Source: Parcubacteria bacterium C7867-008
GTDB lineage: Bacteria; Patescibacteriota; Minisyncoccia; Phycocordibacterales; Phycocordibacteraceae
DNA: 64,000 bases
Assembly: GCA_001189215.1 (NCBI GenBank)
Contig: LFCR01000004.1
Span: forward strand, 95,391-159,390
Direction: 5' to 3'
Part shown: positions 5,615 to 49,209 of the stretch, in pieces
How positions within the stretch are numbered: the stretch's first letter is position 1
Layout of the letters: each line of letters opens with the position of its first letter
Position numbers and translations under genes: made by a program
Notes under the pieces: model-generated
Told to the model about the DNA's origin: nothing
Seen by the model: only the letters and a program-made list of their open reading frames with translations
Database searches by the model: none

Positions 5615-7015
5615 ATGGAACAACGTAAATATACAAAGATCGTCGCGACGATCGGTCCGAAAACAGAGTCTGAAGAAACACTATCCCGCCTCATCCAGGC
5701 GGGAATGAACGTCATGCGCTTGAATATGAGCCATGGTGATCAAGCGGAGCATGGTGCACGTATCGTAAATGGACGTGCAGCAGCTGAAAAGCTTGGCGAA
5801 CCCATTGGTATTCTTATGGACCTCTCTGGTCCTAAGATTCGTACCGGTATGTATGAAACAGAGCGCATAACTATTGAGAATGGTGCAAAGCTCACCCTCA
5901 CTACTGAAGAAGCCATTGGTACCACTTCACGCATCTATGTGAACTACCGCAAACTTCCACAAGAAGTGAAGCCTGGTTCCGTGATCATGCTCGATGACGG
6001 CAAAAAGAAGCTTGTCGTTGATTCCATCGAAGGAACAGAAGTGCACTGCACCGTGGTGGTTGGTGGTGAACTAAAGGCACGTCGTGGAGTGAACATTCCT
6101 GGTGCATACCTCACGATCGATACCATCACCGAGAAAGATCGCGATGATCTCGCATTCGGTATTAAGCAGGGTATTGATATGGTTGCACTATCCTTTGTGC
6201 GCAGACCTGAAGACATTACGGAACTTCGTGAGATTCTAAAGACGCTTGGGGCTCCAACCCTTCCAATCATTTCTAAGATTGAGACTCAGGAAGCAATTGA
6301 TAACCTTGATGCAATCATCACTGCTTCAGACGGCATCATGGTTGCTCGTGGAGACCTCGCTATTGAGATTCCCGCAGAACAGGTACCGCGTTGGCAGAAG
6401 GAAATGATCCGTAAGTCTAATGAGCAGGGTAAGCCAGTCATCACTGCTACCCAGCTTCTTGAGTCCATGATCACCAGCCCGGTTCCAACCCGTGCTGAAG
6501 TATCAGACGTCGCTAATGCAGTATTCGATGGCACTGATGCGGTGATGCTTTCAGAGGAAAGCACGCTTGGTGCATTCCCCGTTGAAGCCGTTGAGACTCT
6601 CGCTCGTGTGGCTCGTGCTTCGGAAGCAGCCATCACACCGCCTGTTGCGGTATCTACTATCCCAGACACCGTTACTCATGCGGTAGCTCGTGCCGCTGAA
6701 GAGCTTAATGCAAAGGCAATTGTTGCCCTAACAGAATCAGGTACCACGGCTCGCATCACCGCACGGTTCCATCCTCACTGCCCGGTGATTGCACTTACTC
6801 CAAGCGAATCAACCCGCAAGTCTCTCGCACTCTCACGTGGCGTATATCCATACACCATCAAGCAGCTGGGCTCTCTTGAAGAGACCCTCGCATTCATTCC
6901 TGGTTTCCTTATGGAAAAGGGGTATGCAACGACCGGCGACACGGTACTGGTTACTGCAGGCCTTAGCTTTGGTGTTGCTGGTTCAACAAACCTTCTCGTG
7001 GCAATTACGCTCTAA
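5615..7015 (+). CDS. pyk: pyruvate kinase
   Basis: MEQRKYTKIVATIGP...MRLNMSHG...LMDLSGPKIRTG, full-length barrel and C-terminal domain. Confidence 0.95.
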   Translation: MEQRKYTKIVATIGPKTESEETLSRLIQAGMNVMRLNMSHGDQAEHGARIVNGRAAAEKLGEPIGILMDLSGPKIRTGMYETERITIENGAKLTLTTEEAIGTTSRIYVNYRKLPQEVKPGSVIMLDDGKKKLVVDSIEGTEVHCTVVVGGELKARRGVNIPGAYLTIDTITEKDRDDLAFGIKQGIDMVALSFVRRPEDITELREILKTLGAPTLPIISKIETQEAIDNLDAIITASDGIMVARGDLAIEIPAEQVPRWQKEMIRKSNEQGKPVITATQLLESMITSPVPTRAEVSDVANAVFDGTDAVMLSEESTLGAFPVEAVETLARVARASEAAITPPVAVSTIPDTVTHAVARAAEELNAKAIVALTESGTTARITARFHPHCPVIALTPSESTRKSLALSRGVYPYTIKQLGSLEETLAFIPGFLMEKGYATTGDTVLVTAGLSFGVAGSTNLLVAITL

Positions 7016-7698
7016 GGGTATCCCGGGTAGTATTCGATCTTAAAATCGTCTACCCATTCAGTGCCGGGAATAATACTCAGCACCTTACCGAATATCTTGG
7101 AATCCTCCTCTTTCACAACGATAGGGGAGTAATTTCCGTACTTATTCTCAGGAATGAGGTACACCACCTCATCAATCCTCTGGTACTGCTTAATAACTGC
7201 CATGTTACCGAGCACCGCTACCACACGGTCTCCATCACCCACATCATCTGTTACTTCAACAATGACATAGTCCCCGTTACGAATACCGGCATCGATCATA
7301 CTGTCTCCAACTGCACGTACAGCTACGATATTCGTGTGTGTTCCAACAAAGGAGCGATCAACCGTGATGAACTCACCAAACTCATTCTGCGCATACACTT
7401 CAACTGCGTCACACCCCGCTGAAGCTATAACCGGTATCTGCACTACGCCTGAATGCGCAAAGGGAAACTGCGTATCAAGAATAGTGATACTACGATGTTG
7501 ATGACGATCCCGCTTAGTGAAGCCTTTACGCTCAAGTGCCTCAAGCCTTTGTGTCACACTGCGCAGTGAGCGTAGCTTTAACCCATCACGAAGCTCTGAA
7601 ATGGTCGGTGCCTGATCGTTGTTCGCAACATACGTACGAATAAAAGAGAGAGTTTCCTCTTGCGCACCGGTGAGAGTTCGATGCAGTGCCATATACAA
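7012..7698 (-). CDS. lexA: LexA repressor (S24 peptidase)
   Basis: N-terminal winged HTH; C-terminal GDSM...K motif (AVGDSMIDAGI ... IKQ). Convergent overlap with the pyk stop. Confidence 0.9.
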   Translation of the reverse strand: MYMALHRTLTGAQEETLSFIRTYVANNDQAPTISELRDGLKLRSLRSVTQRLEALERKGFTKRDRHQHRSITILDTQFPFAHSGVVQIPVIASAGCDAVEVYAQNEFGEFITVDRSFVGTHTNIVAVRAVGDSMIDAGIRNGDYVIVEVTDDVGDGDRVVAVLGNMAVIKQYQRIDEVVYLIPENKYGNYSPIVVKEEDSKIFGKVLSIIPGTEWVDDFKIEYYPGYP

Positions 7699-7720
7699 AT
7701 AGAATACCTGAGAATCATTT

Positions 7721-7870: not shown

Positions 7871-8641
7871 TTAGGCGTAGGCGCGACGCCGGCGACGAAT
7901 CGAGGCGCCGGCCAGGCCGAAGCCCAGGATCATCATCGCCCAGGTAGCCGGTTCGGGCACGCCGGGAAGTTCCGGAGGCGTGATGATGATCGGCGGATCC
8001 ACGTCGGTCTGCAGTCGCCTCAGGATGCTCACGTTGTCGATGCCGAGACCGTCGCCCAGGAAGCCGGATTCGGGCAGGAAGACGTCAGGGTTGCTGACGA
8101 ACGTGGCCCGAAGGTTGATGCGACTGATCACGTCGTAGTCCGTAGCGATGAAGGCCACCGTCCGATAGCTCCGGTAGAGGAGGTCGTTCAGGCGACCGTC
8201 GAGGATGATCACGCCGTGGTTGTCGATGACCTGGAAGTCCAGCTCGATCGGGAAGAGGTCCGGCCGGCTGTTGATGTTCTGGAAGACGTCGACGGTCAGG
8301 TTGTTGAAGTAGGTGCCGTCGGCCAACTCCAGAGTGGTGAAGCCGGTTGCGAAACCATCCCCACCGATCAGAAGCGGAGCCCAGCTTTTGTTGCCGGGGA
8401 CCAAAATGCTGCTGATGCCGCTGGCCAGGCCAGTGTAGGAAGCCTTCACACCCGACGAGCTGAGATAGGTCTTGGTCGCGGTGAAGGTCGGCTGGCTCGA
8501 GAAGTCAGCCCTCGTGAGAGACTCGAGCGACGTTCCGTAGAGAGCCGTCACACCGGCATACGCCGGAGCGGAAGTGACCAGAGCGAGTGCGCCGGCCAAT
8601 CCCAACAGGTAGTGAAGAGAATTCTTCATTCTTAACCCCAT
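7871..8641 (-). CDS. PEP-CTERM sorting-signal protein (secreted), GC-rich
   Basis: Signal peptide; C-terminal VPEPATWAMMILGFGLAGASIRRRRR (PEP motif, TM helix, Arg cluster). Region visibly GC-rich. Confidence 0.75.
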   Translation of the reverse strand: MGLRMKNSLHYLLGLAGALALVTSAPAYAGVTALYGTSLESLTRADFSSQPTFTATKTYLSSSGVKASYTGLASGISSILVPGNKSWAPLLIGGDGFATGFTTLELADGTYFNNLTVDVFQNINSRPDLFPIELDFQVIDNHGVIILDGRLNDLLYRSYRTVAFIATDYDVISRINLRATFVSNPDVFLPESGFLGDGLGIDNVSILRRLQTDVDPPIIITPPELPGVPEPATWAMMILGFGLAGASIRRRRRAYA

Positions 8642-8697
8642 CTTGGTTTGAGACTCGGCGCGGCCGAGTTAACGGCCACACCCTTTCGGTAGATCCT

Positions 8698-8751
8698 GAG
8701 GAAGTGAGCGTTTTAAGGGCCATATATGGTCCACAAAACGCTCACTTCCTT
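8698..8751. promoter_or_regulatory. long inverted repeat (16-bp arms, 20-nt loop containing a nested GGCCATATATGG palindrome)
   Basis: GAGGAAGTGAGCGTTTT...AAAACGCTCACTTCCTT read directly; lies in the divergent intergenic region between the two PEP-CTERM genes. Confidence 0.5.
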
Positions 8752-8903
8752 CTAAAACCATGAGTTTTAAAAGGACCCGTAACTGCCCGTAGCATACTAA
8801 AGTTGACATTTATGTCAAGGTATTGTGATCGCATCTTCATGAAGGAATATTTGCATAAATCAGATATTTAGGTTATAAAAATACAAGCAGTTCTTTATAT
8901 ATT

Positions 8904-8971
8904 CCTGATTTCCCGCACCCAAAAGCACTTCTGAGTCTTTTCAGGAACGTTGTTGGGTACGGGAAATCAGG
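8904..8971. promoter_or_regulatory. long inverted repeat (19-bp arms, 1 mismatch, 30-nt loop) in the leader of the second PEP-CTERM gene
   Basis: CCTGATTTCCCGCACCCAA...TTGGGTACGGGAAATCAGG. Confidence 0.5.
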
Positions 8972-9004
8972 ACATTTGTCGTTTCTGATCGTGCTCAAGG
9001 GGAC

Positions 9005-9787
9005 TTGAATATGCGTTTTGCGACCATCTTCGCGGCTGCGGCCGTTCTCTCGCTCTCGGCGGGCGCCGCTTTCGCGGACAGCCTGAATGACTTCTCGGCT
9101 CCGTTGACGCTCAGCGCCACTCCGGGGCCGGGCGTCTGGTCCGTCGACCGGTTTCCGCCGGCGACCTTTCAGTCGCAGGTCGCGTACGGCGGCCACGCCA
9201 ACACGCTCGAAATCGGCACCGTCGCGGCCGACTACCACGGCGGCACCTTCACCGACACACAGGGCAGGGCGACGAAGCTCGAGTCTGGGACCACGTTCGT
9301 GAGCGCGCAGATCTACATCGATCCGGGGTACCTCGACACCCGGTCCGATGCGCGTCTCGCGGAACTCTGGGGCGTCGGCACCGACGGCCTCGACATCACT
9401 GCCTACCCCCTTCTCGGGGTGGCGCGGGTGAGCGATCACCTCGAATACAAGGCTTGGAACACTCTCGGTGGCTTCTTCAGCCTCGGGACCATCGCTGCGT
9501 CCGACATCGGCACGTGGCAGACCATCAGCTACAAGCTGGACGGCGCGAACATCCTCTACGGCGCAGGGTCCTTCACCGGCATGACCGGGGCTCTGGGCAC
9601 CACGAGCTTCGACAGCGCCATCGTGCAGGCCATCAATACCGGCGGCAATCGCACGCACCACTTCGACAACCTGTTCACCAGCACCGGCGCGGTTCCCGAA
9701 CCGGCGACCTGGGCGATGATGATCCTGGGCTTCGGCGGCGTAGGCCTCACGGTCCGCCGGCGCCGCGGCGTCATGGCGGTGGCCTAG
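9005..9787 (+). CDS. PEP-CTERM sorting-signal protein (secreted), GC-rich
   Basis: Signal peptide MRFATIFAAAAVLSLSAGAAFA; C-terminal AVPEPATWAMMILGFGGVGLTVRRRRG, identical PEP-TM core to the gene at 7871-8641. Confidence 0.75.
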   Translation: MNMRFATIFAAAAVLSLSAGAAFADSLNDFSAPLTLSATPGPGVWSVDRFPPATFQSQVAYGGHANTLEIGTVAADYHGGTFTDTQGRATKLESGTTFVSAQIYIDPGYLDTRSDARLAELWGVGTDGLDITAYPLLGVARVSDHLEYKAWNTLGGFFSLGTIAASDIGTWQTISYKLDGANILYGAGSFTGMTGALGTTSFDSAIVQAINTGGNRTHHFDNLFTSTGAVPEPATWAMMILGFGGVGLTVRRRRGVMAVA

Positions 9788-9833
9788 CCACCCCGAACGA
9801 CAAGATCGACCTCAAGGTCGACAACCAACACTT

Positions 9834-9863
9834 GGGCCCGCTTTGTTGCGGGCCCATTCTTTT
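9834..9863 (+). terminator. intrinsic terminator
   Basis: GGGCCCGCTTTGTTGCGGGCCC followed by ATTCTTTT. Confidence 0.6.
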
Positions 9864-9875
9864 ATATTGCTGTAT

Positions 9876-9903
9876 TTGACATTTAATATATTTTGTGTAT
9901 ATT
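9876..9903 (+). promoter_or_regulatory. sigma70-like promoter (TTGACA-16-TATATT)
   Basis: TTGACA at 9876-9881 and TATATT at 9898-9903. It overlaps the ATG given by the ORF track, so the real start of the downstream gene is probably the GTG at 9932. Confidence 0.4.
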
Positions 9904-9931
9904 GTGTGAGGTAAATGGGGAGTATGAACAC

Positions 9932-10285
9932 GTGGAGAGAGATTACCTGAGGGTAGTTGGAACAGCGCCGGCACATCTGCCGGACTACAACTACGAAGAT
10001 CGAATTGAAGACCTGCGGGGACTTCTATGGGCTGCCTGCAAGCGCGGGCAACAGCATCTGATCGATGACATCGCCGTGCGTGCGCATCTTGCGCCCAGCA
10101 CTGTCGAGGCTTTCGTGTTCGGTCAGACAAAAAGACCGCAAGATCGCACGGTCTTCGAGATCGCGAAAGCCATCGGCTTTCGGATGGCGCTCATCCCCTT
10201 ATCGGTCCCGAAGCTTCGGGAAGAATTGGATCGCGGGAACCTTCCTGATGATCTGCCGAGAAGGAAGACACCCTTCAAGTCGTAG
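9932..10285 (+). CDS. HTH (XRE/Cro-like) DNA-binding protein, GC-rich
   Basis: IAVRAHLAPSTVEAFVFGQTKRPQDRTVFEIAKAIGF looks like helix-turn-helix. ORF track starts at ATG 9893, but GTG 9932 is preceded by GGGGAG at a 9-nt spacing. Confidence 0.45.
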   Translation: MERDYLRVVGTAPAHLPDYNYEDRIEDLRGLLWAACKRGQQHLIDDIAVRAHLAPSTVEAFVFGQTKRPQDRTVFEIAKAIGFRMALIPLSVPKLREELDRGNLPDDLPRRKTPFKS

Positions 10286-14022: not shown

Positions 14023-14081
14023 GAAGTTACCGGTGTCATTGTACTCCTATATACCTTGTAGATGGTAGACTTTTAGTATCG

Positions 14082-16424
14082 ATGGCGGACTCTGAACTAT
14101 TGATGAACATACGTGAACGATTGGCGCGCGGCGAAGACGAAACGAAGATCCGTGAGTCTCTAAAAGGCAAAAAGTGGAGCGAACCAGATGTTAATGGGGC
14201 AATTGCCGTAGCGAAGCTTCGTATGAAAGCAGGAGGGCGTTTCTCTGCAGTATCGGAAGTTCGCAGCACAAGAGCAGGTGGTAACGGCCTTGTTTTCAAC
14301 ATAGTAATGGTAGTGATATTGCTGGTAAGTGCACCGGTAGCCTACGGTGTGTATACCGGGTACATTCCGCCCGTACCCCTTCCAAATTCAGTGAACGAGA
14401 TAGCATTTGAAAGCCAGAACGCTAGCACTACTGATTCGCTATTTGATACTCCGTTTGATATTACGCAGCTCATACCAGTTGGAAAGGGTCCCAGACAGCT
14501 TGCCAACAATGACCCGACTCCTGCACCTGTTGCGACTAAACCCATTGGTTCATCGGCACCCAATCCTACGCCAGTTACGGTAACAAGTACTCCAGAACCT
14601 GCATCTACTCCTACTGCTTCAGAAGATCCTGCTCCAACTATTACGTTCGGAGTAAATGCAACAAGTGCCGTATCAGGAGATGTTGTTACCTTCACCTGGG
14701 ACGCCCAGAACGCCACGGTTTGTAACGGATCAGGATTCAATACCGGCTCGCGTGTAAGCGGTAGTGTCAACAAACGAGTAAGCGCTTCTTCCGTATTCAG
14801 GATCAGCTGTACCAACGCCACCCGCAGTGCAAAAGCAGAGGTGTCTATAAGAGTTTCTCCTAAAGTTCCCAAACCTCCCACTCCTGCACCTACTCCAACA
14901 CCGACTCCTACTCCTACACCAAGCCCCACACCTTCACCAACTCCAAGTCCCACCCCAACACCAACTCCTACACCTGTTCCAGTACCTTCGCCAACACCAA
15001 CAGGTACCTATAGTGTTTATTCAGGGTGCGAATCACCTTCAACAACCTTTGCACGCACCATCTACTTTGATCCCGTAAACGGTAACGACACCACCGGAAC
15101 CGGTGCAAGCAGTCTTCCATTTAAAACACTACAAGGAACTATAAATCTCAAAAAGATACTTCCAAATGATCACTTAGTACTGATGCCTGGTACCCATCCA
15201 GGACTTCTAACAAGTGCACTCCACCAACCAGCTCTCGCAGCAACATCAAAATGGGTGTGGCTTGATTTCCAGCCGGGTGCCGTTATGGACGGTGGCATCA
15301 ATCTAACTGATATGAAGCGTTGGCTTATCACTAAGCCTGAGATGACAAGCACCACCAAGCAAACAATTCTTATATTCACTGCCCGTGGTTCTAACATAGT
15401 TGTTGCAGATGGATTCTTTTACACTGAAAAAGGTTCTCCAACAGGATGGGATGTGGCTAAGTGGGGTAAAGCAAATAGCGGCATAACTACAGACACTACC
15501 ACCTGCGTATCTATACTCCGTAATCGCTTCAAGAACATGCTTGGCGGTATTACCGTAAATACACGTACGGCGTCTCCTGACGCTTCAAAAAACAGTATTA
15601 AAGCTATTATCAGTCAGAACATTATTCAAAATATCTCTGCCGATGGCATACGTCCTCTAGGTTCGGACTTTATCGTGTCGCACAACACTGTCCTAGACCA
15701 ATACCTTGATCGTGATGTTGATCCAAACCACGATGACGCCCTCCAGATGTATGCGCTCGGTGGTATCCAGTATGAAAACATCATTATTGATCACAACTGG
15801 ATGCAAGAGACGACTGATCCAAGTCGAAAGTACATTAGTGGTATGCAGGGCATCTCATCCTTTGATGGGGTAATCAAGAATATGCAAATAACAAACAATG
15901 TTGTTATCACCTCTGTATGGCAGGCAATTGCGTGGTACGGCATTCAAGACAGCGTTATTGACCACAACACGGTCGTGAATTACACCAACAACGGAAGACC
16001 GTCCTGGATTATGACCCACGACGGGAAGGATGGATCGCATGTGGTGAATGTAGCTCTCACCAATAATGCAGCAGCAGGTGTGTATGGTTCCGTGGGGGTC
16101 ACCACAGAATCAAATAACATCACCGTTCCAAACCCAGCAGCGGTATACACCACCTTTAATCCTGCAGGTAACAGTTATAATTTCACACCAAAACCAGGAA
16201 GCATTCTTGATGGAAAGGGCGCTGGTGTGGGGGGAGGAACTCGACCCCTCTCTCTTGAAACTTCTAGACGTCCTGCCTACGCAGTAGCATCACCAGCAGA
16301 CGTTTCTAAAGCACCCGCACAGAGCAAACTCGTAGCTTCTGTATACAATGGCGCTTCGTGGTTGGGGGATGCTTGGCATACCTTCTGGTCTTGGCTCGTA
16401 GGTTTCTTTGCTACAATTACATAA
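14082..16424 (+). CDS. large surface protein: N-terminal conserved domain, TM, Pro/Thr-repeat linker, right-handed beta-helix-like domain
   Basis: [17 protein letters not shown] low-complexity linker; NN..I...W/IDHN repeats typical of a parallel beta-helix. Paralog of the next gene. Confidence 0.65.
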
Positions 16425-16448
16425 ACACCTCGGTACACTCTACGTATT

Positions 16449-18536
16449 ATGTCGGACGACGAACTTTTTAAAGCAATAGCGCAAAAGCTATCTGCTGGAA
16501 TACCGGAAGATGAGATACACAAATCATTTGATTCTCGCTGGGCTCCACAAGATATTAATGGGGCAATTGCTGTTTGGAAACTTCGCAATAAGTCTTTCAC
16601 ACTAACTAAACAAATTCCTCAAACCGCATACCACAAACCTTGGGAGGGCAACTCCTTCTTTCAGTTCTTTGTTATCGCCATACTTCTGGTCTCAGCACCA
16701 GGCGCGTATGGTCTAGTTACCGGCTTCCTTCTACCAACCGTACAGAATGATCCAATTAAAGCGGATTCGGTTAAAGAGTCCTATGAGTTATTGCGCGATG
16801 TTCCTTCACTAATTCCCGTAGCGCCCTTGGGAACCATTCTTCCTACAAAAAATACCCTTGCACCGATTGCTCAAGTTCCTACAAATGAAGTTCTGGCCAC
16901 TCCAACAACACCTGTTGCTACTCCTTCCAATATCACCCCCGCACCGACGGTTTCATTTAGCGTAAACACAAAGAGTGTTACGACTGGTTCACGTGTCACC
17001 CTTGAATGGAGTTCGGCAACGGCAAAGTCTTGTGTCGGTGCCAACTTTGATACCGGAGGCGTTGCAACTGGTTCATTGCGCAAGACACTATCAGTTACCA
17101 CTACCTACAGCATCACTTGCACCAATGCGGGCGGCACAACGACACGAAATGTTACCGTCTCTGCAACCAATAAGCAGGGTACCCTCATTCCAAATCCCGC
17201 TCCCGTTCCAACACCAACACCCGAGCCAGATCCCACACCAACTCCGACCCCTACTCCTACACCTACGCCCGTACCTACTCCTACACCAACCCCTGCGCCT
17301 ACTCCAACACCGACCCCTGCACCGACTCCTACACCAACCCCTGCGCCTACTCCGACTCCAGGTTCAACAGTTGTCGTACACAGCTATGTAGAAGCTATTG
17401 CTGCACTTAAAGCCGTTCAAGGCAAAGGAAATATCACGGTCCAATTTGCACCTGGAAACTACGGTGACGTAACATTCGGTGGAACCTATGAAAGTGGGTT
17501 TGCATATAACAAAGGGTTTGATTTCCCAACACCCGTAACTATCACCTCACAAAGCAATTCAAGCAGAGCGGTGTTCAGTAGAATACTTGTTAGCTACAGC
17601 AAAGGAATAATTATTAGTAATGTGGACGTTAGTCGCGATAGCTATGTTTCTCAGATTGTATATGTATCTAATTCTGCAAATGTCACCCTTGCTGGTTTAA
17701 AGATTACGGGCTCGCCAGATCTGGGCTCTACTGGTATTAGTACTCGCAACAATACCGACATAACAATCCGTAATAGTGAAGTTACCAGAGTCGGTAACGG
17801 TATTGGTTCATACCAAGATCCTGGACCGGTCTCGATCCTTTATAACCACGTGCACAACGTCGCAACCGATGCTATTGATGTGTACTACCAGCGTGGTATC
17901 GCAACCATAAAGGGAAATTACGCGCATGATTTCACTGTACAAGCTGGTTCGCACCCAGACTGTTTCCAAACATCATCAGGAGGAAGCAACACTAAACTGT
18001 ACGCAAATGAGAATCTTTGTGTTCGAGGCTCCGCTACCGGAGTACCGCAAGGTGTCTTTATAGGAAGTGAGAAAACAGGCACTGTTGAAATGAACGACAA
18101 CATGGTCGTGTGCGGTCTGTATAATGCAATCGCCGTATCAGAAGCGGGAGGCGGTACCATATCTGGCAACGAAGTTATCAACTGTCCTGATTATGGTGGT
18201 TGGATCAGATACCAAAATAGTGACAATCTCACCATAAGTAATAACGTATCGCCCCAATACGTTGGTGTTGGAACAAATACCAATACAGTATTTAGCAACA
18301 ACAGTACTACATCCCCAGGTGTCTCTAATTCTTCTGGCGCAGCAGATCGTATTGCTGCATGGCGCGCACGTCATCCGCAGGTTCCAGGGGATTCCTATAC
18401 TCCTACATACAGCCTTCTGGAAAGAGTTATGCGTTCATTTGCTGAAGCAACAGGAGCCTTCATGCTTGCACTAGAGAGTGTGGGGAAGTCTGCACTAGCA
18501 TCCGTATTTGAATCCCTTCGTTTCTCTGCTTGGTAG
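16449..18536 (+). CDS. paralogous surface protein with PT-repeat linker and beta-helix-like domain
   Basis: N-terminus ([23 protein letters not shown]...[12 protein letters not shown]) parallels [23 protein letters not shown]...[12 protein letters not shown] of the upstream gene; [12 protein letters not shown] linker. Confidence 0.65.
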
Positions 18537-23757: not shown

Positions 23758-24129
23758 ATGAATATATACTTCAAGAATACTCATCCTGATGTGCAAACTT
23801 CTCTCATCTCGCGAGCAGAGAAAAAGATTAACAGTCTCTCAAAGCAAATAGATGAAGGAAGATTTGAGGCTCAGACATATGTTGAGATAACGAAGGCAAC
23901 CGGTTCACAGCACTCTGACGCAGCATGGCGTACCAGCATCAATGTTGATATCAGAGGTGAACGATTCCATGCGGAATCGGTACAAAATACGCCAGAGAAA
24001 GCAACGAACCGAGCAATCAATGAAATACGAAGTGAACTGCGCACACATAGGGAACGAGAGCGCGTAACAGAGCGAAAGGATGGCAGCTTCTGGAAGACGC
24101 TTCAGCAGCGCGACTTCAGTCCGCAATAG
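23758..24129 (+). CDS. hpf: ribosome hibernation promoting factor / RaiA family
   Basis: MNIYFKNTHPDVQTSLISRAEKKINSLSK...RGERFHAESV matches the YfiA/HPF pattern. Confidence 0.6.
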   Translation: MNIYFKNTHPDVQTSLISRAEKKINSLSKQIDEGRFEAQTYVEITKATGSQHSDAAWRTSINVDIRGERFHAESVQNTPEKATNRAINEIRSELRTHRERERVTERKDGSFWKTLQQRDFSPQ

Positions 24130-24976
24130 ACGCCAGAAACGTCTGGTACGGCATCTCTCGTTTCCCTTCAGGGATTACCTGTTCGATAACAAAGGCATCA
24201 TCACGGTATGATGCCTTTGTTATTTTCACGCGTATCTTTATCCCGTTTCGTTCTACAAAGAAATACAGACCTGGCCAGCCTTCATACGCGCAGTATTTAA
24301 GATAATTCTCTCGTGCAGGACCCGTAGGATCAATGAGCCCATCTTCTTTCTCTATCTTACGCGTGAATGTAACGAGAGTATTATCTTGTGGCGTTGCAGG
24401 AATAGTACCCGCAACCCAACCAGGTAATACGGAAGCAAGAGAGCACCCACCGGCGCGAGCAAGTATCTCAGACAACTCTGTTCGTCCAACGGGCCATCCT
24501 GAAATCTCTATACGTTCTTGCGCAAGAACAGGACCAGTGTCCATACCTTCATCAAGCAACATAATAGACACCCCAACCTCCTTCTCATCTGAAAGAATCT
24601 GTCCTTCGATCGGAGCTGCTCCTCGATACTTAGGGAGGAGTGATGGATGCACATTGATGCAGCCATGAGGAGTGAGGCTCAGCACACGTTTAGAAAGAAT
24701 CTTTCCATATGCGGCAACCACAAATACTTCACACTCATAGGCACTAATTTCAGTACGAAAAGCAGCATCTAACTTCTCAGGCTGCAGAATAGGAATATTG
24801 TGCTCACGTGCCCACACCTTAACCTCAGACTCGGTGAGCTGCATGCCACGACCCGCAGGACGGTCTGGTGCTGTAACAATCACCTTAGGAAGCATCTCTG
24901 CTTTTTCCATCTCCTCTAGTACCCACACCGCCACCATAGGCGTACCGAAGAATGCGTAGTTGCTATTAGTCTTCAT
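24116..24976 (-). CDS. fmt: methionyl-tRNA formyltransferase
   Basis: HPSLLPKYRGAAPI and N-terminal FFGTP...AV motifs; start at the internal Met (MKTNSNYAFFGTP). Confidence 0.9.
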   Translation of the reverse strand: MKTNSNYAFFGTPMVAVWVLEEMEKAEMLPKVIVTAPDRPAGRGMQLTESEVKVWAREHNIPILQPEKLDAAFRTEISAYECEVFVVAAYGKILSKRVLSLTPHGCINVHPSLLPKYRGAAPIEGQILSDEKEVGVSIMLLDEGMDTGPVLAQERIEISGWPVGRTELSEILARAGGCSLASVLPGWVAGTIPATPQDNTLVTFTRKIEKEDGLIDPTGPARENYLKYCAYEGWPGLYFFVERNGIKIRVKITKASYRDDAFVIEQVIPEGKREMPYQTFLASIAD

Positions 24977-25493
24977 GATGGTGCTTTTCTTCGCGATGAA
25001 CCTCAAATTGCTCGTGCGCATGATCAATAAACAAGATGCCATTTAAATGATCAATTTCATGCTGGAAGACTTGTGCAAGAATACCGCCACCGCCACGTTC
25101 AAACTTGGCGCCATCTACCGTGCGTGCACGTACGGTAGCTCGATCATGTCGAACGGTCTTTCCATAGATACCACGTACGGAGAGACACCCCTCGTCCATC
25201 TCCACCTGACGACGAGATGCCTTCACAAATTCAGGATTGATATAGATCCCCACATGAGCCGGAAGTGGTGCATCACCAGGTGATGAGAGGAGTCGGTCAT
25301 AGCGCACGATAAACAATCGCTTACTCACCCCAACCTGAGGAGCAGCAAGTGCCACGCCATCTGGTTCAGCATTCAATGCCTCGGCCATTCCATCAACCAG
25401 CGCCTTAAGTTCGGGGGTACCAAACTCTTCTTCGGTGATGGAATCAGACACTGCATCAAGTACCGGGTCTCCATCTTGAACAATGCTATACAT
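24966..25493 (-). CDS. def: peptide deformylase
   Basis: GVALAAPQVG, EGCLS and HEIDHLNG motifs; start at the internal Met (MYSIVQDG). Confidence 0.9.
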   Translation of the reverse strand: MYSIVQDGDPVLDAVSDSITEEEFGTPELKALVDGMAEALNAEPDGVALAAPQVGVSKRLFIVRYDRLLSSPGDAPLPAHVGIYINPEFVKASRRQVEMDEGCLSVRGIYGKTVRHDRATVRARTVDGAKFERGGGGILAQVFQHEIDHLNGILFIDHAHEQFEVHREEKHHHED

Positions 25494-25562
25494 GCGGACA
25501 CCATAGCATACGTAGGGATATGAAAAAGCCGCCTTCAAAGAAGACGGCGAATGGAACGAAAG

Positions 25563-25810
25563 AGCGGGGGGTGTACCGCCGACTGCCAGCGCTAACTTAT
25601 TGTAGGGTCCGTTGGGGCAAACCAGACAAAGAGAGCTGCTCAAGCAGTCGGCGGTACGACGCTGAAGACCGATACATACGGGAGGGAGGGGAGAGCGCCT
25701 CCTATTAGTCTTCAGCGAAATGGGAATCGAGGTACAAGTGGACTGGGGTGAGGGAGGGTTCGTGTCCCTCACCCCCTGGAGCTCTGGGTGAGGGACATCC
25801 CGAGCATCGA
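25563..25810. ncRNA. GC-rich structured element (candidate ncRNA) between priA and def
   Basis: 14-bp perfect inverted repeat GTACCGCCGACTGC...GCAGTCGGCGGTAC enclosing about 57 nt, then GGAGG..CCTCC and TGAGGGA-GGGTTCGTG-TCCCTCA hairpins; no plausible ORF. Confidence 0.3.
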
Positions 25811-25879
25811 CAGTGTCCAGTCTCAAGCTTTAGGCTCCTGCGAGGAAGACTTCAAACGAGGGACACCAATACTATAAGT

Positions 25880-27736
25880 CTAAAATGCTTCCGGGTCAAT
25901 AAGGATGCGCACCGAGGGTGGCAGAGTGCGAAGACGGGCATGCAGCTCTTGATTCGGCCAGATTCCTTCAGAAAGGTGCAATACGTAGGAACGTCGTAGC
26001 ATCGTTCGCGTAAGGGGACGATCGGGAAGTACCGTAAATGAATGTGTGCCAATCGCAGAACGAATTGCAGAGCCTAATGCATCAAGTTGATTTCGTGTTG
26101 CTTCTGCTTGTATTGAAATGAGTGTCCCAAAAGGTGGGTAGTGGAGAGCAGAACGAAGTGCCGTCTCCTCTGTAAAGAAAGAAGTTGTTTGCGGATGAAG
26201 TACTGCGTCCACAGCTGTATCTTCAGGAAGACGCGTGCCAAGGAGCAACCGTTCTGTCATACCAACAACGGTGTATGCAAGACGAACAAATCGTTCTCGT
26301 GCTCGCCAGAACGGAAGCGCAAGTAGACTATCTGCTGATGCAATCACCACAAGATCAAATTGAGGCACCTGCGATGCTCGTATCCAGGGTACAGCACCTT
26401 CTGTACCAACAACAATAGTGCACGGACGGGGAGCATCAACAAGTGCTTTCTTTGCCATGGAGAGAGTGCGCACCGTATCACCATCAAATCGGATGACAGT
26501 GGCGTCGGGAAAAGCTGCACGAAGCTCTTCTTCAACTCGTTCAACACCAACACCAAGGGGCATAAGGTTCCAGCTCTTACATAGCTCACAAAGCACATTC
26601 GTATTCTCAAGTATCCTTCCATCTACCGTACGGAAGGCACGTCCGTGTGGACCTTCTTTTGTAAACGTGAGTACGTTACCAAATTCATCAACACGGGTGG
26701 TACCGCAATCCCTACACACGACGCTTGGTGCATACCCCCTACGCACAGCAAGAGCCAGTACCCGACCTCCGGTATCAAGGGTCTTAGCAATCTCATCACG
26801 CATTGCCTGTGGCACTGCCATCCACTGCTCTTCTTTTGTCTCTTCCTCCACAACAGCCTTGGGCTTTTCAGTATCAAGCTTCTCCCGACGCATATCGAGG
26901 ATAGTAACGGATGGATCAGTAGTAGTGAGCGGAGCTGCGGGGTCCGGTCGGTACTCCAGAGGGAGTGGGAAATCCCCATACGCAAGATTAATTGATCTGG
27001 CACGTGCAAGTTCAGTGAGTGCGACACGCATATCGAGATACGGACGCTTTGGTGAGCGATAGCTACCTGCTCCTGCACGCTCAACAATGATGGTTCCAAG
27101 ATTCTGTATGGGGGTCCATGAAAATGATGGAGTACTTATAACCAAAGAAGCTGATGAAGCTGCATGAAGTGCTGCTTCACGTTTTTGTCCAACAAGGGTA
27201 CTTGAAAGCACTACAGGTTTGTATTTGGCTAGACACTGTTTCCAATATTCCGTCTCTGCAATAGTTGGAACAACAAGAAGTACAGGGTGCTGTGTTCTGG
27301 AAATGGAATCCGTGTACGAGCGTATACGCTCTTCAACGGGCATCTCTACCGTGTTCACCGCAAATCCTGAACCTTCGTGTAGGTTCTGTATTTCAGCAAA
27401 CGAGAGATCACTGCGTATATGTTCTCCAAACAGACTTCCGAGCGTGCTGCCTAGTGTTGATGCATGGAGTTGTGCGGTTCGTTCTGCAGCAGTACGTAAC
27501 GACTCAGGCAGTGTGCCCATAACCGTTGGCACACTCTTAGTAAGTACAAACGTTGCGTTCTTAAGTGTTGCCTTTGCCTCTGCAACACTCTGACAACTCA
27601 CCACCAATCCCTGTACCATCCGACGACGTAGCGAAACTTCCACAATCGTTCCTTCAGTAAGGGCGGTACGGCTACGATAGGTAAGTGTACCGGCGGGAGC
27701 GGTACGCGAAAAAGGGATCACGTCGACGACGTACAT
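25880..27736 (-). CDS. priA: primosomal protein N' (PriA) homolog with degenerate helicase motifs I and II
   Basis: PriA-like N-terminus; LVVPTIAETEYW and FSWTPIQNLGTIIV align to E. coli ALVMVPEIGLTPQ and LFTPFKNLGVIVI; Cys4 zinc cluster CRDC...CELC. Walker A reads GSGFA (not GSGKT) and DEEH reads ERAG. Confidence 0.75.
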   Translation of the reverse strand: MYVVDVIPFSRTAPAGTLTYRSRTALTEGTIVEVSLRRRMVQGLVVSCQSVAEAKATLKNATFVLTKSVPTVMGTLPESLRTAAERTAQLHASTLGSTLGSLFGEHIRSDLSFAEIQNLHEGSGFAVNTVEMPVEERIRSYTDSISRTQHPVLLVVPTIAETEYWKQCLAKYKPVVLSSTLVGQKREAALHAASSASLVISTPSFSWTPIQNLGTIIVERAGAGSYRSPKRPYLDMRVALTELARARSINLAYGDFPLPLEYRPDPAAPLTTTDPSVTILDMRREKLDTEKPKAVVEEETKEEQWMAVPQAMRDEIAKTLDTGGRVLALAVRRGYAPSVVCRDCGTTRVDEFGNVLTFTKEGPHGRAFRTVDGRILENTNVLCELCKSWNLMPLGVGVERVEEELRAAFPDATVIRFDGDTVRTLSMAKKALVDAPRPCTIVVGTEGAVPWIRASQVPQFDLVVIASADSLLALPFWRARERFVRLAYTVVGMTERLLLGTRLPEDTAVDAVLHPQTTSFFTEETALRSALHYPPFGTLISIQAEATRNQLDALGSAIRSAIGTHSFTVLPDRPLTRTMLRRSYVLHLSEGIWPNQELHARLRTLPPSVRILIDPEAF

Positions 27737-27763: not shown

Positions 27764-28564
27764 CTAGATCGGAAGCGTAAACGTACGGTTATCGTCACGA
27801 ACAACGATAGTACCGGCATCCCACGGTATAGCGACCGGTGCCAGGCCTCCATTAAAGAGTGGCGCGAAGAACTGAGGCTTGAGTGGATTTAGCTCAAACA
27901 CGGCAAGGGTGGTGCCATACCCAATTATAAGAACGTCCTGACGTCCCGGATATGCAATGACAGAATGCAACTTAGCGATAGGCGCAAAGATAACGGTGGT
28001 AGCGCACGTACCTCCAACACAAAGATACGGCGGAGGGGTGCAGCCGGTTGAAGTTGCAACAGTTGCCACTACACGATTATTTGAAACAAATACATTTGCG
28101 CATCCATTTTCCATAACGATTGGGTGTGTTGCATCTGGAAGAAGTGCTGCGGCAAGTGCCTTCGTTGCTTCCGTGCGTGCTGGTTCTTCAAGAGAAGAAC
28201 GATCTGCTGTTACCGGAACAAACACCGGAGAAATACGCAGATCAGTACCTGCAGTTACGGGCACCAGATCGCTCCACGGATGGTTACCCACTGAGTCCAC
28301 GATGATGCTGTGATTACCGGGCACAAGTGCGATACGCACATCGGTACCGTGCCCTACCGCGCGCTTTGCCTCGTCTGCATACACCACCGCGTCAGTAGGG
28401 ATGTTTGTCAGAACGAGGGTACCGGCACGCACAACGGTGAGACCTGGACCAACACGGAAACCAAGTACATATCCCGCAGTAAATACCACGATAAGGAGAG
28501 CAATTATAAGAAGCGGTGCGTAACGACGAGCAAAGGAACGGATGCGTTTGAGTGTTGGATTCAT
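27764..28564 (-). CDS. membrane-anchored hypothetical protein
   Basis: N-terminal TM helix (LLIIALLIVVFTAGYVLGF), remainder extracytoplasmic. Confidence 0.45.
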   Translation of the reverse strand: MNPTLKRIRSFARRYAPLLIIALLIVVFTAGYVLGFRVGPGLTVVRAGTLVLTNIPTDAVVYADEAKRAVGHGTDVRIALVPGNHSIIVDSVGNHPWSDLVPVTAGTDLRISPVFVPVTADRSSLEEPARTEATKALAAALLPDATHPIVMENGCANVFVSNNRVVATVATSTGCTPPPYLCVGGTCATTVIFAPIAKLHSVIAYPGRQDVLIIGYGTTLAVFELNPLKPQFFAPLFNGGLAPVAIPWDAGTIVVRDDNRTFTLPI

Positions 28565-28620: not shown

Positions 28621-29937
28621 CTAGGACATGCCTCTAATTTCTGCCCCAATAGCGGTGAGACGAGAAACCAGGTCTTCATACCCACGATTAATGCTATACA
28701 CGTTACGTAATATGGACTGACCATCCGCACCGAGCATAGCAATTAAGAGGATTGTTGCTGGTCGTAGTGCAGGAGGGCACACCAATTCAGAACCACGCAG
28801 ATGACGAGGACCGGTGATTGAAATACGGTGTGGATCAAGAAGAAGGGTATCTGCCCCTAAGCGATCAAGTTCGGTGTAGTAGATCGCACGCTTTTCATAT
28901 ACCCAGTCATGAATGAGAGTGGTTCCCTCTGCTTGTGTAGCAATTACAGCAAAGAACGGAAGATTATCGATGTTCAAACCTGGATACGGTCGTGCATGAA
29001 TCTTTTCAGGGAATGCTGTGAGTTGTGTTGTTGTTGCATCAATAGCAATGTCCGCGAGTTTGGTAATACCATTCTCGCTCACCCCTACATCGGTAACCTC
29101 AAAGGGAAGCCCCATAGCTTCAAGTACGGCAAGCTCTACCTCAAGGAATTCAATCGGTGCGCGGGTGATAGTGAGCTTTGAATGGGTCGTTACCGCAGCT
29201 GCAATAAAGAACATGGCATCAGTGGGATCTTCCGCAACCGTGTACGACACATCTACATTCATTTCCGGTAGTCCGGTGATCGTAAGTGTCGTGGTGCCAA
29301 CACCATCAATCGTTGCACCAAGCAGTTGAAGGTATCCGCAAATCTCCTGTACCTGGTAGTTTGCAGATGCGTATTTAATGACAGACGTACCGGGAATTCG
29401 AGAGGCCGCAAAGAGTGCGTTAATCGTTGCCGTATCACTAGACTCATACAGCACGATAGTCTGTGCAGAGAGCTCCGTGTTGCTTACGTGATAGTGGTCA
29501 CTTTCTGTATCGATCTTCACACCGAATCGTTCAAGTGCCCACAAGTGCGGACGCACGGAACGAAGACCCAGGTGACACCCCCCAGACTGCGGAATATCAA
29601 AACTCTTGAAGTGATGGATGAGCGGACCAATGAACATCAGAATGCTACGCGTGCGGATAGCAGCAGCACGGTCGATACTTGCAAGATCAATAATTTCAGG
29701 AGGAGTAAGGGTAAGAGTGTGATCATCCCATACTGCTTTCATACCGATTGATTCAAGCACCTCAACAAGACGGTGTACCTCTTCGATCTTTGGTACCTGA
29801 TGGAGGGTGGTCGTTCCTTTATTAAGAAGTGATGCTGCAAGCAGTGCAACGGCACCATTCTTAGAGCGATTAGTGAGCACTGAGCCGTGTAGCTTCTTTC
29901 CGCCCTCAATAATGAATCCGCTTTCCGTGCTTGCCAT
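28621..29937 (-). CDS. murA: UDP-N-acetylglucosamine 1-carboxyvinyltransferase
   Basis: EPSP-synthase-fold MurA: KNGAVALLAASLL, catalytic Cys region GGCHLG, C-terminal INRGYEDLVSRLTAIGAEI. Confidence 0.85.
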   Translation of the reverse strand: MASTESGFIIEGGKKLHGSVLTNRSKNGAVALLAASLLNKGTTTLHQVPKIEEVHRLVEVLESIGMKAVWDDHTLTLTPPEIIDLASIDRAAAIRTRSILMFIGPLIHHFKSFDIPQSGGCHLGLRSVRPHLWALERFGVKIDTESDHYHVSNTELSAQTIVLYESSDTATINALFAASRIPGTSVIKYASANYQVQEICGYLQLLGATIDGVGTTTLTITGLPEMNVDVSYTVAEDPTDAMFFIAAAVTTHSKLTITRAPIEFLEVELAVLEAMGLPFEVTDVGVSENGITKLADIAIDATTTQLTAFPEKIHARPYPGLNIDNLPFFAVIATQAEGTTLIHDWVYEKRAIYYTELDRLGADTLLLDPHRISITGPRHLRGSELVCPPALRPATILLIAMLGADGQSILRNVYSINRGYEDLVSRLTAIGAEIRGMS

Positions 29938-32557: not shown

Positions 32558-32676
32558 AGGATCCTCCTTATAGCGCGTTGATGAACGATAGCCATACTAA
32601 CTCACTATCTACTTATTATTATGGAACTTATAGTCGGTAAAGTCAAGTGCTGTAGCATCTCCTATATACTGGATAT

Positions 32677-33372
32677 ATGGCGCATCATGCATACGTAGTA
32701 ACAGGGGAATCGGAGCAGGGTATTGCAGCTGCCATCGCTCATGCAGAGCAAGAACTTGGACTTGTACGAGACAATAACCCTGATCTTATTGTCCTTAGAC
32801 ATGGGTTGTTTTCCGTAGATGACGCACGCACTATTAGTGATCGTGCTAATCGTGCAGCAATGAATGGAGATCAGAAGGTAATCATTGTTTCTGCATTGCG
32901 ACTCTTCCACGAAGCACAGAATGCACTCCTTAAGATATTTGAAGAGCCACCGTCTGGCACAAATCTTATATTAGTGATCCCATCGGACGGTATGCTGTTA
33001 CCCACACTCCGTTCACGCCTCCTTCCTCTACCAGGAAGTACCAATAGCAACACTGTTTCAGTAGATGCCTCTGCATTTCTTGGTCTTAATGGGGCAGCAC
33101 GTGAGGCCTTTGTTACAAAACTAGTTGATCGATCTAAATCTGATACCGATGAGGTAAAACAGGCAGCAAGAAACGAGGCAGTGCGTCTTGTAGAGGGTCT
33201 TATGAAGGCAACGTACGCCGTCCGAGCAAGGGAAGCTGATGCGATGAAACAGCATGTACTCACTGATTTCTTGGAAGATCTCTCTCGATTCCTTCCCATT
33301 CTTCATGAACGCTCAGCTCCGCTAAAACTCATATTTGAACACATTCTTTTGGTTATCCCCAAAGGGCTTTAG
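32677..33372 (+). CDS. holB: DNA polymerase III delta-prime subunit
   Basis: FHEAQNALLKIFEEPP ... LLPTLRSR clamp-loader motifs. Confidence 0.7.
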   Translation: MAHHAYVVTGESEQGIAAAIAHAEQELGLVRDNNPDLIVLRHGLFSVDDARTISDRANRAAMNGDQKVIIVSALRLFHEAQNALLKIFEEPPSGTNLILVIPSDGMLLPTLRSRLLPLPGSTNSNTVSVDASAFLGLNGAAREAFVTKLVDRSKSDTDEVKQAARNEAVRLVEGLMKATYAVRAREADAMKQHVLTDFLEDLSRFLPILHERSAPLKLIFEHILLVIPKGL

Positions 33373-46474: not shown

Positions 46475-46495
46475 AACAGGATATACTGGGGGTAT

Positions 46496-47296
46496 ATGGC
46501 AGAATTTCGTAAGCAATATAATCCAAACCGAAGTTCAGACTGGAACTATGGCGGACCCAAATGGCGTCTCTCACGTTCAAAGATTGAGTTGTTTACCGAG
46601 TGTCCTCGTTGCTTCTATCTAGACAATAAACTGGGTACTGCACGTCCTCGTGGTCCTGCGTTTACCCTTAATATTGCGGTGGATGCACTTTTGAAGAAAG
46701 AGTTTGATGTGTACCGAATAGACGGCACCAAGCACCCGCTGATGGAGGCGTATGATATCAACGCTGTTCCGTTTAAGCACAAGAACATGAATACTTGGCG
46801 CGAGAACTTTGAGGGCGTTGAATTCAAACACAAAGAAACTGGCTTCACGATTTCAGGTGCAGTGGACGATATATGGGTTAATCCAGAAGGAGAACTTATT
46901 GTTGTGGACTACAAAGCAACTTCGAAAGAAGGAACAATCACTACACTCGCCGATTCTTCTTGGAACGAGCAGTATCAACGCCAAATGGGTGTCTATCAAT
47001 GGCTCCTTCGTAACAATGGATTCACGGTGTCTCCAACCGGATACTTTGTATATGCAAACGCAGGGAGTGACAAAGCAGCGTTTGATGGACAGCTTGAGTT
47101 TGAAGTAACGGTAGTGCCGTGTGAAGGAGATACCGCATGGATCGATGATGTTCTTCCAAAGATAAAAGATGCACTTGATAGCGAAGCACTACCGCCGGTG
47201 GGTGATGCCTGCGAGTTCTGCGTATACCGAGAAGCATCAGGGAAGAAACTTCAGGAGCTCTATAAGAAGAGTCTGCAGGTAAAGAAAGTGGGCTAA
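46496..47296 (+). CDS. PD-(D/E)XK nuclease family protein with Cys4 cluster (Cas4/RecB-nuclease-like)
   Basis: GAVDDIW ... VVDYKATS D-(D/E)XK motif; N-terminal CPRC plus C-terminal C...CEFC. Confidence 0.5.
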   Translation: MAEFRKQYNPNRSSDWNYGGPKWRLSRSKIELFTECPRCFYLDNKLGTARPRGPAFTLNIAVDALLKKEFDVYRIDGTKHPLMEAYDINAVPFKHKNMNTWRENFEGVEFKHKETGFTISGAVDDIWVNPEGELIVVDYKATSKEGTITTLADSSWNEQYQRQMGVYQWLLRNNGFTVSPTGYFVYANAGSDKAAFDGQLEFEVTVVPCEGDTAWIDDVLPKIKDALDSEALPPVGDACEFCVYREASGKKLQELYKKSLQVKKVG

Positions 47297-48436: not shown

Positions 48437-48507
48437 TTTATTGACTGCATACCAAAAGGGGTCGGCTCAGCGAGCTGACCCCGGACGGAGCAGTTTTTTC
48501 ATATCTA

Positions 48508-49209
48508 GTGTTCAACAATTTGGAGACGTATACTTTTATTATGAATGTACAGCTTGAAGAGACTTGGAAGAGTAAGTTAGAGGGCGAGTTTAAGAAGACT
48601 TATTTTAAGGAGCTCACAAGCTTTGTGAAAGAAGAGTATGCAAACGCTACGACATACCCAGCTCCAAAGAATATATTCCGTGCATTTGAATTAACTCCAT
48701 TTAATAAGGTTAGGGTAGTGATACTTGGACAAGATCCATACCACGGACCCAAACAAGCAATTGGTCTCTCGTTTGCGGTAACAGAAGGTATACGTAATCC
48801 ACCGTCGCTACAGAATATCTTTAAAGAGTTGCAGGGTGATCTTGATGCACCACTTGTACATACAGACGGTGATCTATCTCGTTGGGCAGAACAAGGTGTT
48901 CTACTTCTTAATGCAACACTGACCGTACGCGCAGCATCAGCAGGCTCCCATCAGGGTAAAGGGTGGGAACAGTTTACCGATGCAGTGATTAAGAAACTAT
49001 CGGATGAACGAGAGCATCTGGTATTTATTCTGTGGGGTAACTATGCACGTACTAAAGGTGCACACATAGATCGAACCAAACACTTGGTTATAGAATCGGC
49101 ACACCCGTCTCCATTTTCAGCAACGAATGGATTCTTTGGTTCAAAGCCATTTAGTAAGACAAATGAATATCTAACAGAGCACAGTGAGACACCTATCGAT
49201 TGGCTCTAG
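48508..49209 (+). CDS. ung: uracil-DNA glycosylase (family 1)
   Basis: VVILGQDPYHGP and HPSPFS motifs. Confidence 0.9.
   Translation: MFNNLETYTFIMNVQLEETWKSKLEGEFKKTYFKELTSFVKEEYANATTYPAPKNIFRAFELTPFNKVRVVILGQDPYHGPKQAIGLSFAVTEGIRNPPSLQNIFKELQGDLDAPLVHTDGDLSRWAEQGVLLLNATLTVRAASAGSHQGKGWEQFTDAVIKKLSDEREHLVFILWGNYARTKGAHIDRTKHLVIESAHPSPFSATNGFFGSKPFSKTNEYLTEHSETPIDWL

Follow-up and report, generated by a model that had tools for sequence, protein, structure and literature searches.

A PriA homolog of Parcubacteria with a dismantled ATP site

PriA proteins have been described as helicases with one natural exception: a 2017 review named Deinococcus as the only departure from the conservation of PriA helicase activity (PMC5778457). 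The PriA of Deinococcus radiodurans has no ATPase or helicase activity and binds single-stranded DNA (ssDNA), forks, and DnaB (Lopper et al. 2015, PMC4504706). In Escherichia coli, the PriA mutant K230R (priA300) is ATPase- and helicase-dead, yet it supports restart through PriA-PriB and behaves almost like the wild type in vivo (PMC5778457). Here we analyzed a priA-like gene of Parcubacteria bacterium C7867-008, located in a 64,000-nt stretch (hereafter the window) of contig LFCR01000004.1. The open reading frame (ORF) occupies window positions 25880–27736 on the minus strand, starts with ATG, and runs uninterrupted through 618 codons to a stop codon. Its product is a PriA homolog in which every element that binds or hydrolyzes ATP has been dismantled.

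Fork recognition by PriA has been worked out for the E. coli protein, where the leading arm is recognized by the 3'-end-binding domain (3'BD) and the C-terminal domain (CTD), and the parental duplex by the winged-helix (WH) domain and the first RecA-like lobe (HD1). The lagging-strand ssDNA is bound by the 3'BD, HD1, the second RecA-like lobe (HD2), the cysteine-rich region (CRR), and the CTD. The WH domain helps to bind the parental duplex (PMC10175261).

Because of the Deinococcus and priA300 precedents, a motorless PriA is unsurprising in principle, and natural loss of the helicase activity of PriA is not a new concept. The Parcubacteria case is undescribed, more extreme, and clade-wide. 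A full-text literature search combining PriA with Patescibacteria or the candidate phyla radiation (CPR) returned no description of motif loss, and the one co-mention found concerned an unrelated phylum.

PriA homology and replaced motor motifs

The similarity of the window protein to PriA is far beyond chance. A phmmer search against PDB sequences gave significant matches to the PriA of E. coli and Klebsiella pneumoniae only (E = 2.6e-21, 79 bits), with a sequence identity of ~20%. All PriA models of NCBIfam matched the protein at scores far under their curated cut-offs. The best of them was the general PriA equivalog TIGR00595, with 137.7 bits and a cut-off of 230.35 that was not reached, while the actinobacterial PriA models scored at most 73.6 bits. 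When hhalign was used to match a profile of 131 relatives with one of 37 canonical PriAs, the probability was 100% and the E-value 5e-70, and aa 14–614 of the window protein were paired with residues 12–726 of E. coli PriA.

The predicted fold pointed the same way. The AlphaFold2 model, for which the family alignment served as input, had a predicted local distance difference test score (pLDDT) of 93.8 and a predicted template modelling score (pTM) of 0.92. Its nine best Foldseek matches in the PDB were all PriA chains (E-values from 3.8e-36 to 1.6e-22, TM scores of 0.55–0.71), led by the fork-bound complex 8fak and the WH deletion construct 6dcr; the next matches after PriA, such as Mfd and Upf1, had E-values near 1e-7. 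The model contained two RecA-like lobes, a zinc-binding cysteine-rich insertion in the second lobe, and then the CTD. The order 3'BD-HD1-HD2(CRR)-CTD is the same as in the E. coli and K. pneumoniae proteins (PDB 4nl4, 6dgd, 8fak; TM up to 0.71). An earlier reading of this DNA from its letters alone (the sequence-only reading) had stated that the protein aligns well to PriA, and the phmmer, hhalign, and AlphaFold2/Foldseek results bear this out.

To locate the motor motifs, we mapped them through the profile–profile alignment onto E. coli PriA and compared the 37 canonical PriAs with the 131 family members. Motif occurrence was also followed in 366 full-length relatives, of which 135 were near and 231 distant. 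The five motifs of the superfamily II (SF2) ATP site (motif I GxGKT, motif II DExH, and motifs III, V, and VI) were all replaced in the window protein. In place of motif I, which is an invariant GVTGSGKTEVY in canonical PriAs, stands ---VEERIRSY, and the family conserves only R137 and Y141 in this segment (both at least 90% conserved among the 131 members). Motif II, canonically DE[SE]H, has become ERAG (aa 219–222; 27071–27082, minus strand) through the changes D320 to E219, E321 (the catalytic Glu) to R220, E322 to A221, and H323 to G222; R220 does not vary among the near relatives. The motif III position, [ST]AT in canonical PriAs, is taken by GDFP within YGDFPLPL (aa 253–260; 26957–26980, minus strand). 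Motif V has changed from GTQxLAKGHHF to GTEGAVPW and motif VI from QVaGRAGR to TVVGMTER. No position of motif VI is conserved in the family, and the arginine finger is gone.

As a result of these replacements, lobe HD1 (aa 126–265; 26942–27361, minus strand) is devoid of ATP-site residues and lobe HD2 (aa 391–532; 26141–26566, minus strand) has lost motifs V and VI. Pfam helicase models matched none of 34 near-family members. The sequence-only reading had proposed the change from DEEH to ERAG, which was confirmed exactly, and it had correctly aligned FSWTPIQNLGTIIV (aa 205–218), the strand ahead of motif II.

The former ATP-site positions are occupied by new conserved motifs. The family-specific GD[FY]PLPLE stands at the motif III position, SADSLLALPFWRARERFVR lies at aa 467–485 in HD2, and ER.[SG]AG.Y is a third such motif. 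Residues that are newly invariant in the near family and located in the former ATP cleft include R137, R220, D255, P257, S467, D469, W477, and R480-E481-R482.

The Walker A motif required a change of register. The sequence-only reading had taken GSGFA (aa 122–126; 27359–27373, minus strand) as the degenerate counterpart of GSGKT. The absence of a Walker A motif stood, since GK[ST] occurs nowhere in the 618-aa protein, but the placement did not: the true P-loop position is MPVEERI (aa 132–138; 27323–27343, minus strand), ~11 residues downstream. Both MAFFT and hhalign paired K230 with R137, T231 with I138, and Y234 with Y141. In the AlphaFold2 model, strand beta1 spans aa 126–131 and helix alpha1 spans aa 134–147, with a loop of two residues between them, which places GSGFA in the linker just before beta1. 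GSGFA is also poorly conserved, drifting to GTSFR, GDGFE, and GAGYA among close relatives. These three lines of evidence (the MAFFT and hhalign alignments, predicted secondary structure, and conservation) ruled out GSGFA as the P-loop equivalent. The glycine-rich loop has been deleted outright with the loss of all its glycines, I138 stands for T231, and the Walker A Lys has been exchanged for a conserved Arg. The registers proposed for motif II, motif Ia, and the Cys4 site were correct.

Could the protein still hydrolyze ATP at a non-canonical site, for example one that combines R137, E219, and further residues, and so still work as a motor? Conserved residues do stand at both Walker positions, R137 for the Walker A Lys and E219 for the Walker B Asp, and E. 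coli PriA has been proposed to possess a second and weaker site for nucleotides (PMC5778457). However, the glycine-rich loop is down to two residues, the catalytic Glu of DExH is an Arg, and both motif III and the arginine finger of motif VI are absent. Moreover, the K230R exchange alone kills the ATPase of E. coli PriA, and the D. radiodurans PriA with Arg for this Lys is inactive. We regard a surviving motor as highly improbable.

Retained and missing structural parts

In contrast to the ATP site, the parts of PriA that touch DNA were largely recognizable. The 3'BD (aa 1–108; 27413–27736, minus strand) was identified by Pfam, hhalign, and AlphaFold2/Foldseek. It was the only Pfam domain on the window protein (PF17764, 22.3 bits, just under the cut-off of 22.7), and 33 of 34 near relatives matched this model. 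L18-T19-Y20 of the 3'BD pocket aligned with F16-D17-Y18 of E. coli PriA, and L18 and Y20 were at least 90% conserved.

Motif Ia is present as VVPTIAET (aa 155–162; 27251–27274, minus strand), with conserved P157 and T158, and corresponds to the DNA-backbone contact VPEIgLT of canonical PriAs and to vPT..e in the family. Motif Ic, ARSALF.P in canonical PriAs, reads TPSFSWTP in the window protein and Tp.f...P in the family. Motif IV is RRGYAP both in canonical PriAs and in the window protein (aa 332–337, just upstream of the CRR), and RrG.aP in the family. In SF2 helicases, motifs Ia, Ic, and IV touch the nucleic-acid backbone and not the nucleotide. Because all three were kept, the motor has been removed while the DNA-binding surface was retained.

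The CRR (aa 341–390; 26567–26716, minus strand) contains a single Cys4 site in place of the eight cysteines and two zinc sites of E. coli PriA. Its invariant residues C341, C344, C383, and C386 (CRDC at aa 341–344 and CELC at aa 383–386) correspond to C436, C439, C476, and C479 of E. coli, which form the outer site, and the inner four cysteines of E. coli (C445, C448, C463, C466) are replaced. Two CxxC motifs were counted in 135 of 135 near relatives; among the 231 distant relatives, 102 had four, 126 had two, and three had three. By these counts, the inner zinc site was lost separately within the Parcubacteria family. The sequence-only reading had recognized an N-terminal 3'-end-binding domain, LVVPTIAETEY (aa 154–164) as motif Ia, and a Cys4 zinc site, and each of them was recovered here: the first by PF17764, hhalign, and AlphaFold2/Foldseek, the second by the alignment, and the third by the pairing of its four cysteines with the E. 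coli outer site.

The CTD (aa 533–618; 25883–26140, minus strand) aligned in hhalign up to E. coli residue 726 and was modelled with confidence by AlphaFold2. The sole low-confidence part of the model was near aa 280–300, where pLDDT dropped to 53–80. This part lies in a variable acidic linker (aa 266–308; 26813–26941, minus strand), the segment with the highest ratio of nonsynonymous to synonymous substitution rates (dN/dS).

The WH domain is absent. Residues ~110–225 of E. coli PriA, including the helix preceding motif I, were opposite gaps in hhalign, and in the AlphaFold2 model only ~17 residues separate the 3'BD from beta1. Compared to the E. coli and K. pneumoniae PriAs, the window protein has no WH domain, no ATP-site motifs, and one zinc site instead of two.

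Conservation across relatives and gene order

The identical 618-aa protein was found in three assemblies, namely the NCBI metagenome-assembled genome (MAG), the JGI metagenome 3300001199, and the Logan assembly SRR2043728. Comparison with the two closest genome representatives gave dN/dS of 0.062 (L002, 79% identity) and 0.079 (L003, 70% identity), with dS saturated in these comparisons. The protein has thus been kept under strong purifying selection, even though its motor has been thoroughly dismantled.

A word-indexed search recovered more than 350 homologs, and an exhaustive HMMER search of 1.84 billion cluster representatives recovered 530 clusters (50% identity) at E ≤ 1e-30. The motor motifs were absent from all full-length proteins inspected, which numbered 120 from the word search, ~140 from HMMER, and 120 from a profile search. 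Not one of the 366 full-length relatives, down to 24% identity, contained GxxGxGK[ST], and DExH-like strings in these proteins were sporadic and scattered from aa 2 to aa 612. Probably all 530 clusters are of the helicase-dead type, because canonical PriAs would be expected near an E-value of 1e-17, as extrapolated from the 79 bits of the PDB match. The sequence-only reading had called the lost motifs notable for a reduced genome; they are not peculiar to one genome but common to all 366 full-length relatives.

Most clusters carry no taxon name. The relatives that do were all from the Parcubacteria group, under the labels Kaiserbacteria, Wolfebacteria, Campbellbacteria, Paceibacterota, Minisyncoccia, and 'Patescibacteria group'. 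A few MAGs were labelled Saccharibacteria, and we hold these labels to be uncertain because the MAGs share the same synteny and their proteins are 36–45% identical.

These data also dispose of the idea that the unusual motifs stem from a mistake in sequencing or assembly, or from decay of the gene into a pseudogene. Such an origin had been suggested by the NCBIfam and Pfam scores below the curated cut-offs and by the initial surprise at the motifs, and by nothing else. It is refuted by the same product in three independent assemblies, dN/dS of 0.06–0.08, an uninterrupted ORF, the same motif states in hundreds of relatives, and a very confident AlphaFold2 model, and we give it practically no credence. 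In particular, the frameshift or sequencing error that the sequence-only reading had listed as a possible refutation was not found.

The gene order around the window gene argues for its orthology with priA. Downstream lie def, encoding peptide deformylase (24966–25493, minus strand; Pfam PF01327), and then fmt, encoding methionyl-tRNA formyltransferase (24116–24937, minus strand), both of which keep their places in related loci. Immediately upstream is a gene (27764–28564, minus strand) whose 266-aa product carries a membrane anchor at its N terminus and had no match in Pfam or NCBIfam; beyond this gene lies murA (28621–29937). The membrane-anchored protein was present between murA and priA in ~20 related loci, and the order murA-(266 aa)-priA-def-fmt-hpf was kept in ~40 Parcubacteria loci. 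A canonical Bacillota PriA locus (L064) likewise has priA followed by fmt, and priA-def-fmt is the order in Bacillus subtilis. Because the priA-def-fmt position is conserved, the window gene is taken as the orthologous priA, sitting in its ancestral slot.

The slot also bears on whether the gene is a diverged paralog of an intact, helicase-proficient PriA encoded elsewhere in the genome. The inspected 64 kb are part of a 378-kb contig and a larger genome, which leaves space for a second gene. Against this, hidden Markov models (HMMs) built for canonical PriA and for the family matched only this ORF among the 314 stop-to-stop ORFs of the window, and the gene occupies the ancestral priA-def-fmt slot. 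A one-genome-per-species scan with a pattern that the family has in common with canonical PriAs found canonical genes in other phyla only, with zero Patescibacteria records, which we count as weak evidence. A paralog of this kind seems very improbable to us.

Between the priA stop codon and the ATG of def lies a non-coding spacer of 386 nt (25494–25879, minus strand). Its predicted fold was very stable (−149 kcal/mol, z = −6.8) and included long perfect hairpins, with a terminator-like hairpin ~50 nt ahead of def. The spacer matched no Rfam family and no tRNA, and was not repeated within the window. A spacer of 200–400 nt also separated the two genes in 23 of 25 related Parcubacteria loci; most of these spacers had fold z-scores between −3 and −9, and their sequence was conserved among close relatives only. 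It may represent an undescribed non-coding RNA or a structured leader.

Possible function and further features of the window

Taken with the E. coli and Deinococcus precedents, the retained and missing parts suggest that the window protein is probably a non-catalytic PriA ortholog, a pseudohelicase that binds forks and recruits the replicative helicase. We infer the absence of ATPase activity, the fork binding, and the helicase recruitment by analogy. The sequence-only reading had likewise predicted a PriA dead as ATPase and helicase that may still nucleate the primosome; the further motif losses and the retained parts support this proposal and strengthen it, the functional half of it again by analogy. 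In the mechanism we envisage, the Parcubacteria PriA would recognize abandoned forks or D-loops as a static sensor, and would then serve as a static platform that recruits DnaB, directly or via a loader or the ssDNA-binding protein SSB, in analogy to priA300 and to D. radiodurans PriA. It would be unable to translocate, to unwind, or to expose ssDNA where the lagging arm of a fork is duplex. Because the motor is absent, such forks would need preparation by other enzymes, or would be no substrates. PriB and DnaT are known mainly from Proteobacteria, and for this reason neither is expected as a partner of the Parcubacteria protein.

The Deinococcus-Thermus PriA is the nearest described pseudohelicase. 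It resembles the Parcubacteria protein in its descent from PriA, in having Walker A and B motifs off consensus, and in carrying Arg at the Walker A Lys. The degeneration in Parcubacteria is more extreme, with the P-loop, motifs III, V, and VI, and the WH domain gone and, in the near family, one zinc site. It also affects another lineage (Parcubacteria/CPR) on a much larger scale. Because the lineages differ, the motor was probably lost in Parcubacteria independently of Deinococcus. The E. coli priA300 protein shares the Arg for the Walker A Lys, but it is a laboratory point mutant with an otherwise intact motor that loses the PriA-PriC pathway, and it has no naturally fixed, remodelled cleft.

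Actinobacterial PriAs (PRK14873) are of similar length, ~650 aa. In UniProt they are flagged as having no detectable helicase domain. On the motifs of mycobacterial PriA, our literature search returned general reviews only.

Several observations weigh against a protein that has simply lost its motor and kept the rest. With the WH domain and half of the CRR gone, forks may be recognized in another way than in E. coli. The dead cleft contains strongly conserved new motifs, GD[FY]PLPLE and SADSLLALPFWRARERF, which suggest a function beyond simple loss. Furthermore, the scan for a second priA, DnaB, and a loader was confined to the 64-kb window; no dnaB or loader gene was found among the window ORFs scanned.

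A rival reading is a PriA derivative that has left restart and uses its scaffold for another task dependent on DNA structure, such as that of the main DnaB loader at oriC, of a fork-protection factor, or of an adaptor that binds partners, with the new cleft motifs as a protein-binding site. Consistent with this, the near family has new invariant residues where the ATP site used to be, and the inner zinc site has been lost along with the WH domain. The PriA of Mycobacterium tuberculosis, whose genome has no DnaC, DnaT, PriB, or PriC, has also been called an essential loader of the helicase (PMC5694481). However, the protein still has the 3'BD pocket and the motifs for DNA contact that are characteristic of fork recognition, the conserved priA-def-fmt position argues for orthology, and no neighbour among the annotated window ORFs ties the gene to another pathway. 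On balance, we consider a role outside restart unlikely, and prefer the fork-binding pseudohelicase.

Within the pseudohelicase reading, the conserved motifs suggest that the former ATP cleft might have been rebuilt rather than merely lost, either as a lock between the lobes or as a partner site. We tentatively extend this to a more specific proposal, which we think has an appreciable but clearly minor chance of being correct. Parcubacteria, and possibly more of the CPR, would restart replication with a motorless PriA whose cleft (R137, E219-R220, GD[FY]PLPLE, and SADSLLALPFWRARERF) has been rebuilt as a nucleotide-independent lock or partner surface, which would fix a conformation like that of the fork-bound protein and recruit DnaB or a loader directly. 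If true, this would define a minimal, ancestral, non-enzymatic function of PriA.

The Parcubacteria PriA would be the second natural helicase-dead case and a much larger one, with at least 530 clusters at 50% identity. It would amount to a natural experiment on the indispensable functions of PriA, for which the candidates are fork recognition by the 3'BD, the DNA-contact motifs, one zinc site, and the CTD. At ~600 aa, the protein also offers a compact scaffold for structural and biochemical study, and it bears on how replisomes are reloaded in CPR bacteria with minimal sets of replication and repair genes. The 'superfamily II helicase' labels given to Parcubacteria PriAs in databases are probably misleading with respect to function.

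Other genes of DNA metabolism were annotated in the window. They encode a LexA-like repressor (7012–7719, minus strand), a DNA polymerase III delta'-like protein (32656–33372, plus strand), a Cas4-like PD-(D/E)XK nuclease (46475–47296, plus strand), and a glycosylase of the uracil-DNA glycosylase (UDG) superfamily (48445–49209, plus strand). At the window start, an ORF cut by the boundary (1–1785, plus strand) encodes the C-terminal part of a bacterial-type leucyl-tRNA synthetase (LeuRS; TIGR00396 positions 366–841). In frame ahead of this part is a NUDIX hydrolase domain (aa 23–149) with an intact NUDIX box. The NUDIX domain sits at roughly the usual place of the CP1 editing domain in LeuRS, which it may replace, or it may be an insertion into the LeuRS.

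Two large, adjacent, and poorly characterized ORFs span 14025–18536 on the plus strand; one of 799 aa had no Pfam or NCBIfam match, and the other, of 703 aa, had a Pfam match to a beta-helix region only. The GC content peaked at 0.58 in window positions 8001–10000, compared to ~0.47–0.50, over two ORFs without a Pfam match. In two related loci, group I introns (RF00028, 67–70 bits) were detected downstream of the fmt/hpf block (L004:8986–9234 and L005:10545–10784), and in other relatives the matching region held a tRNA gene.

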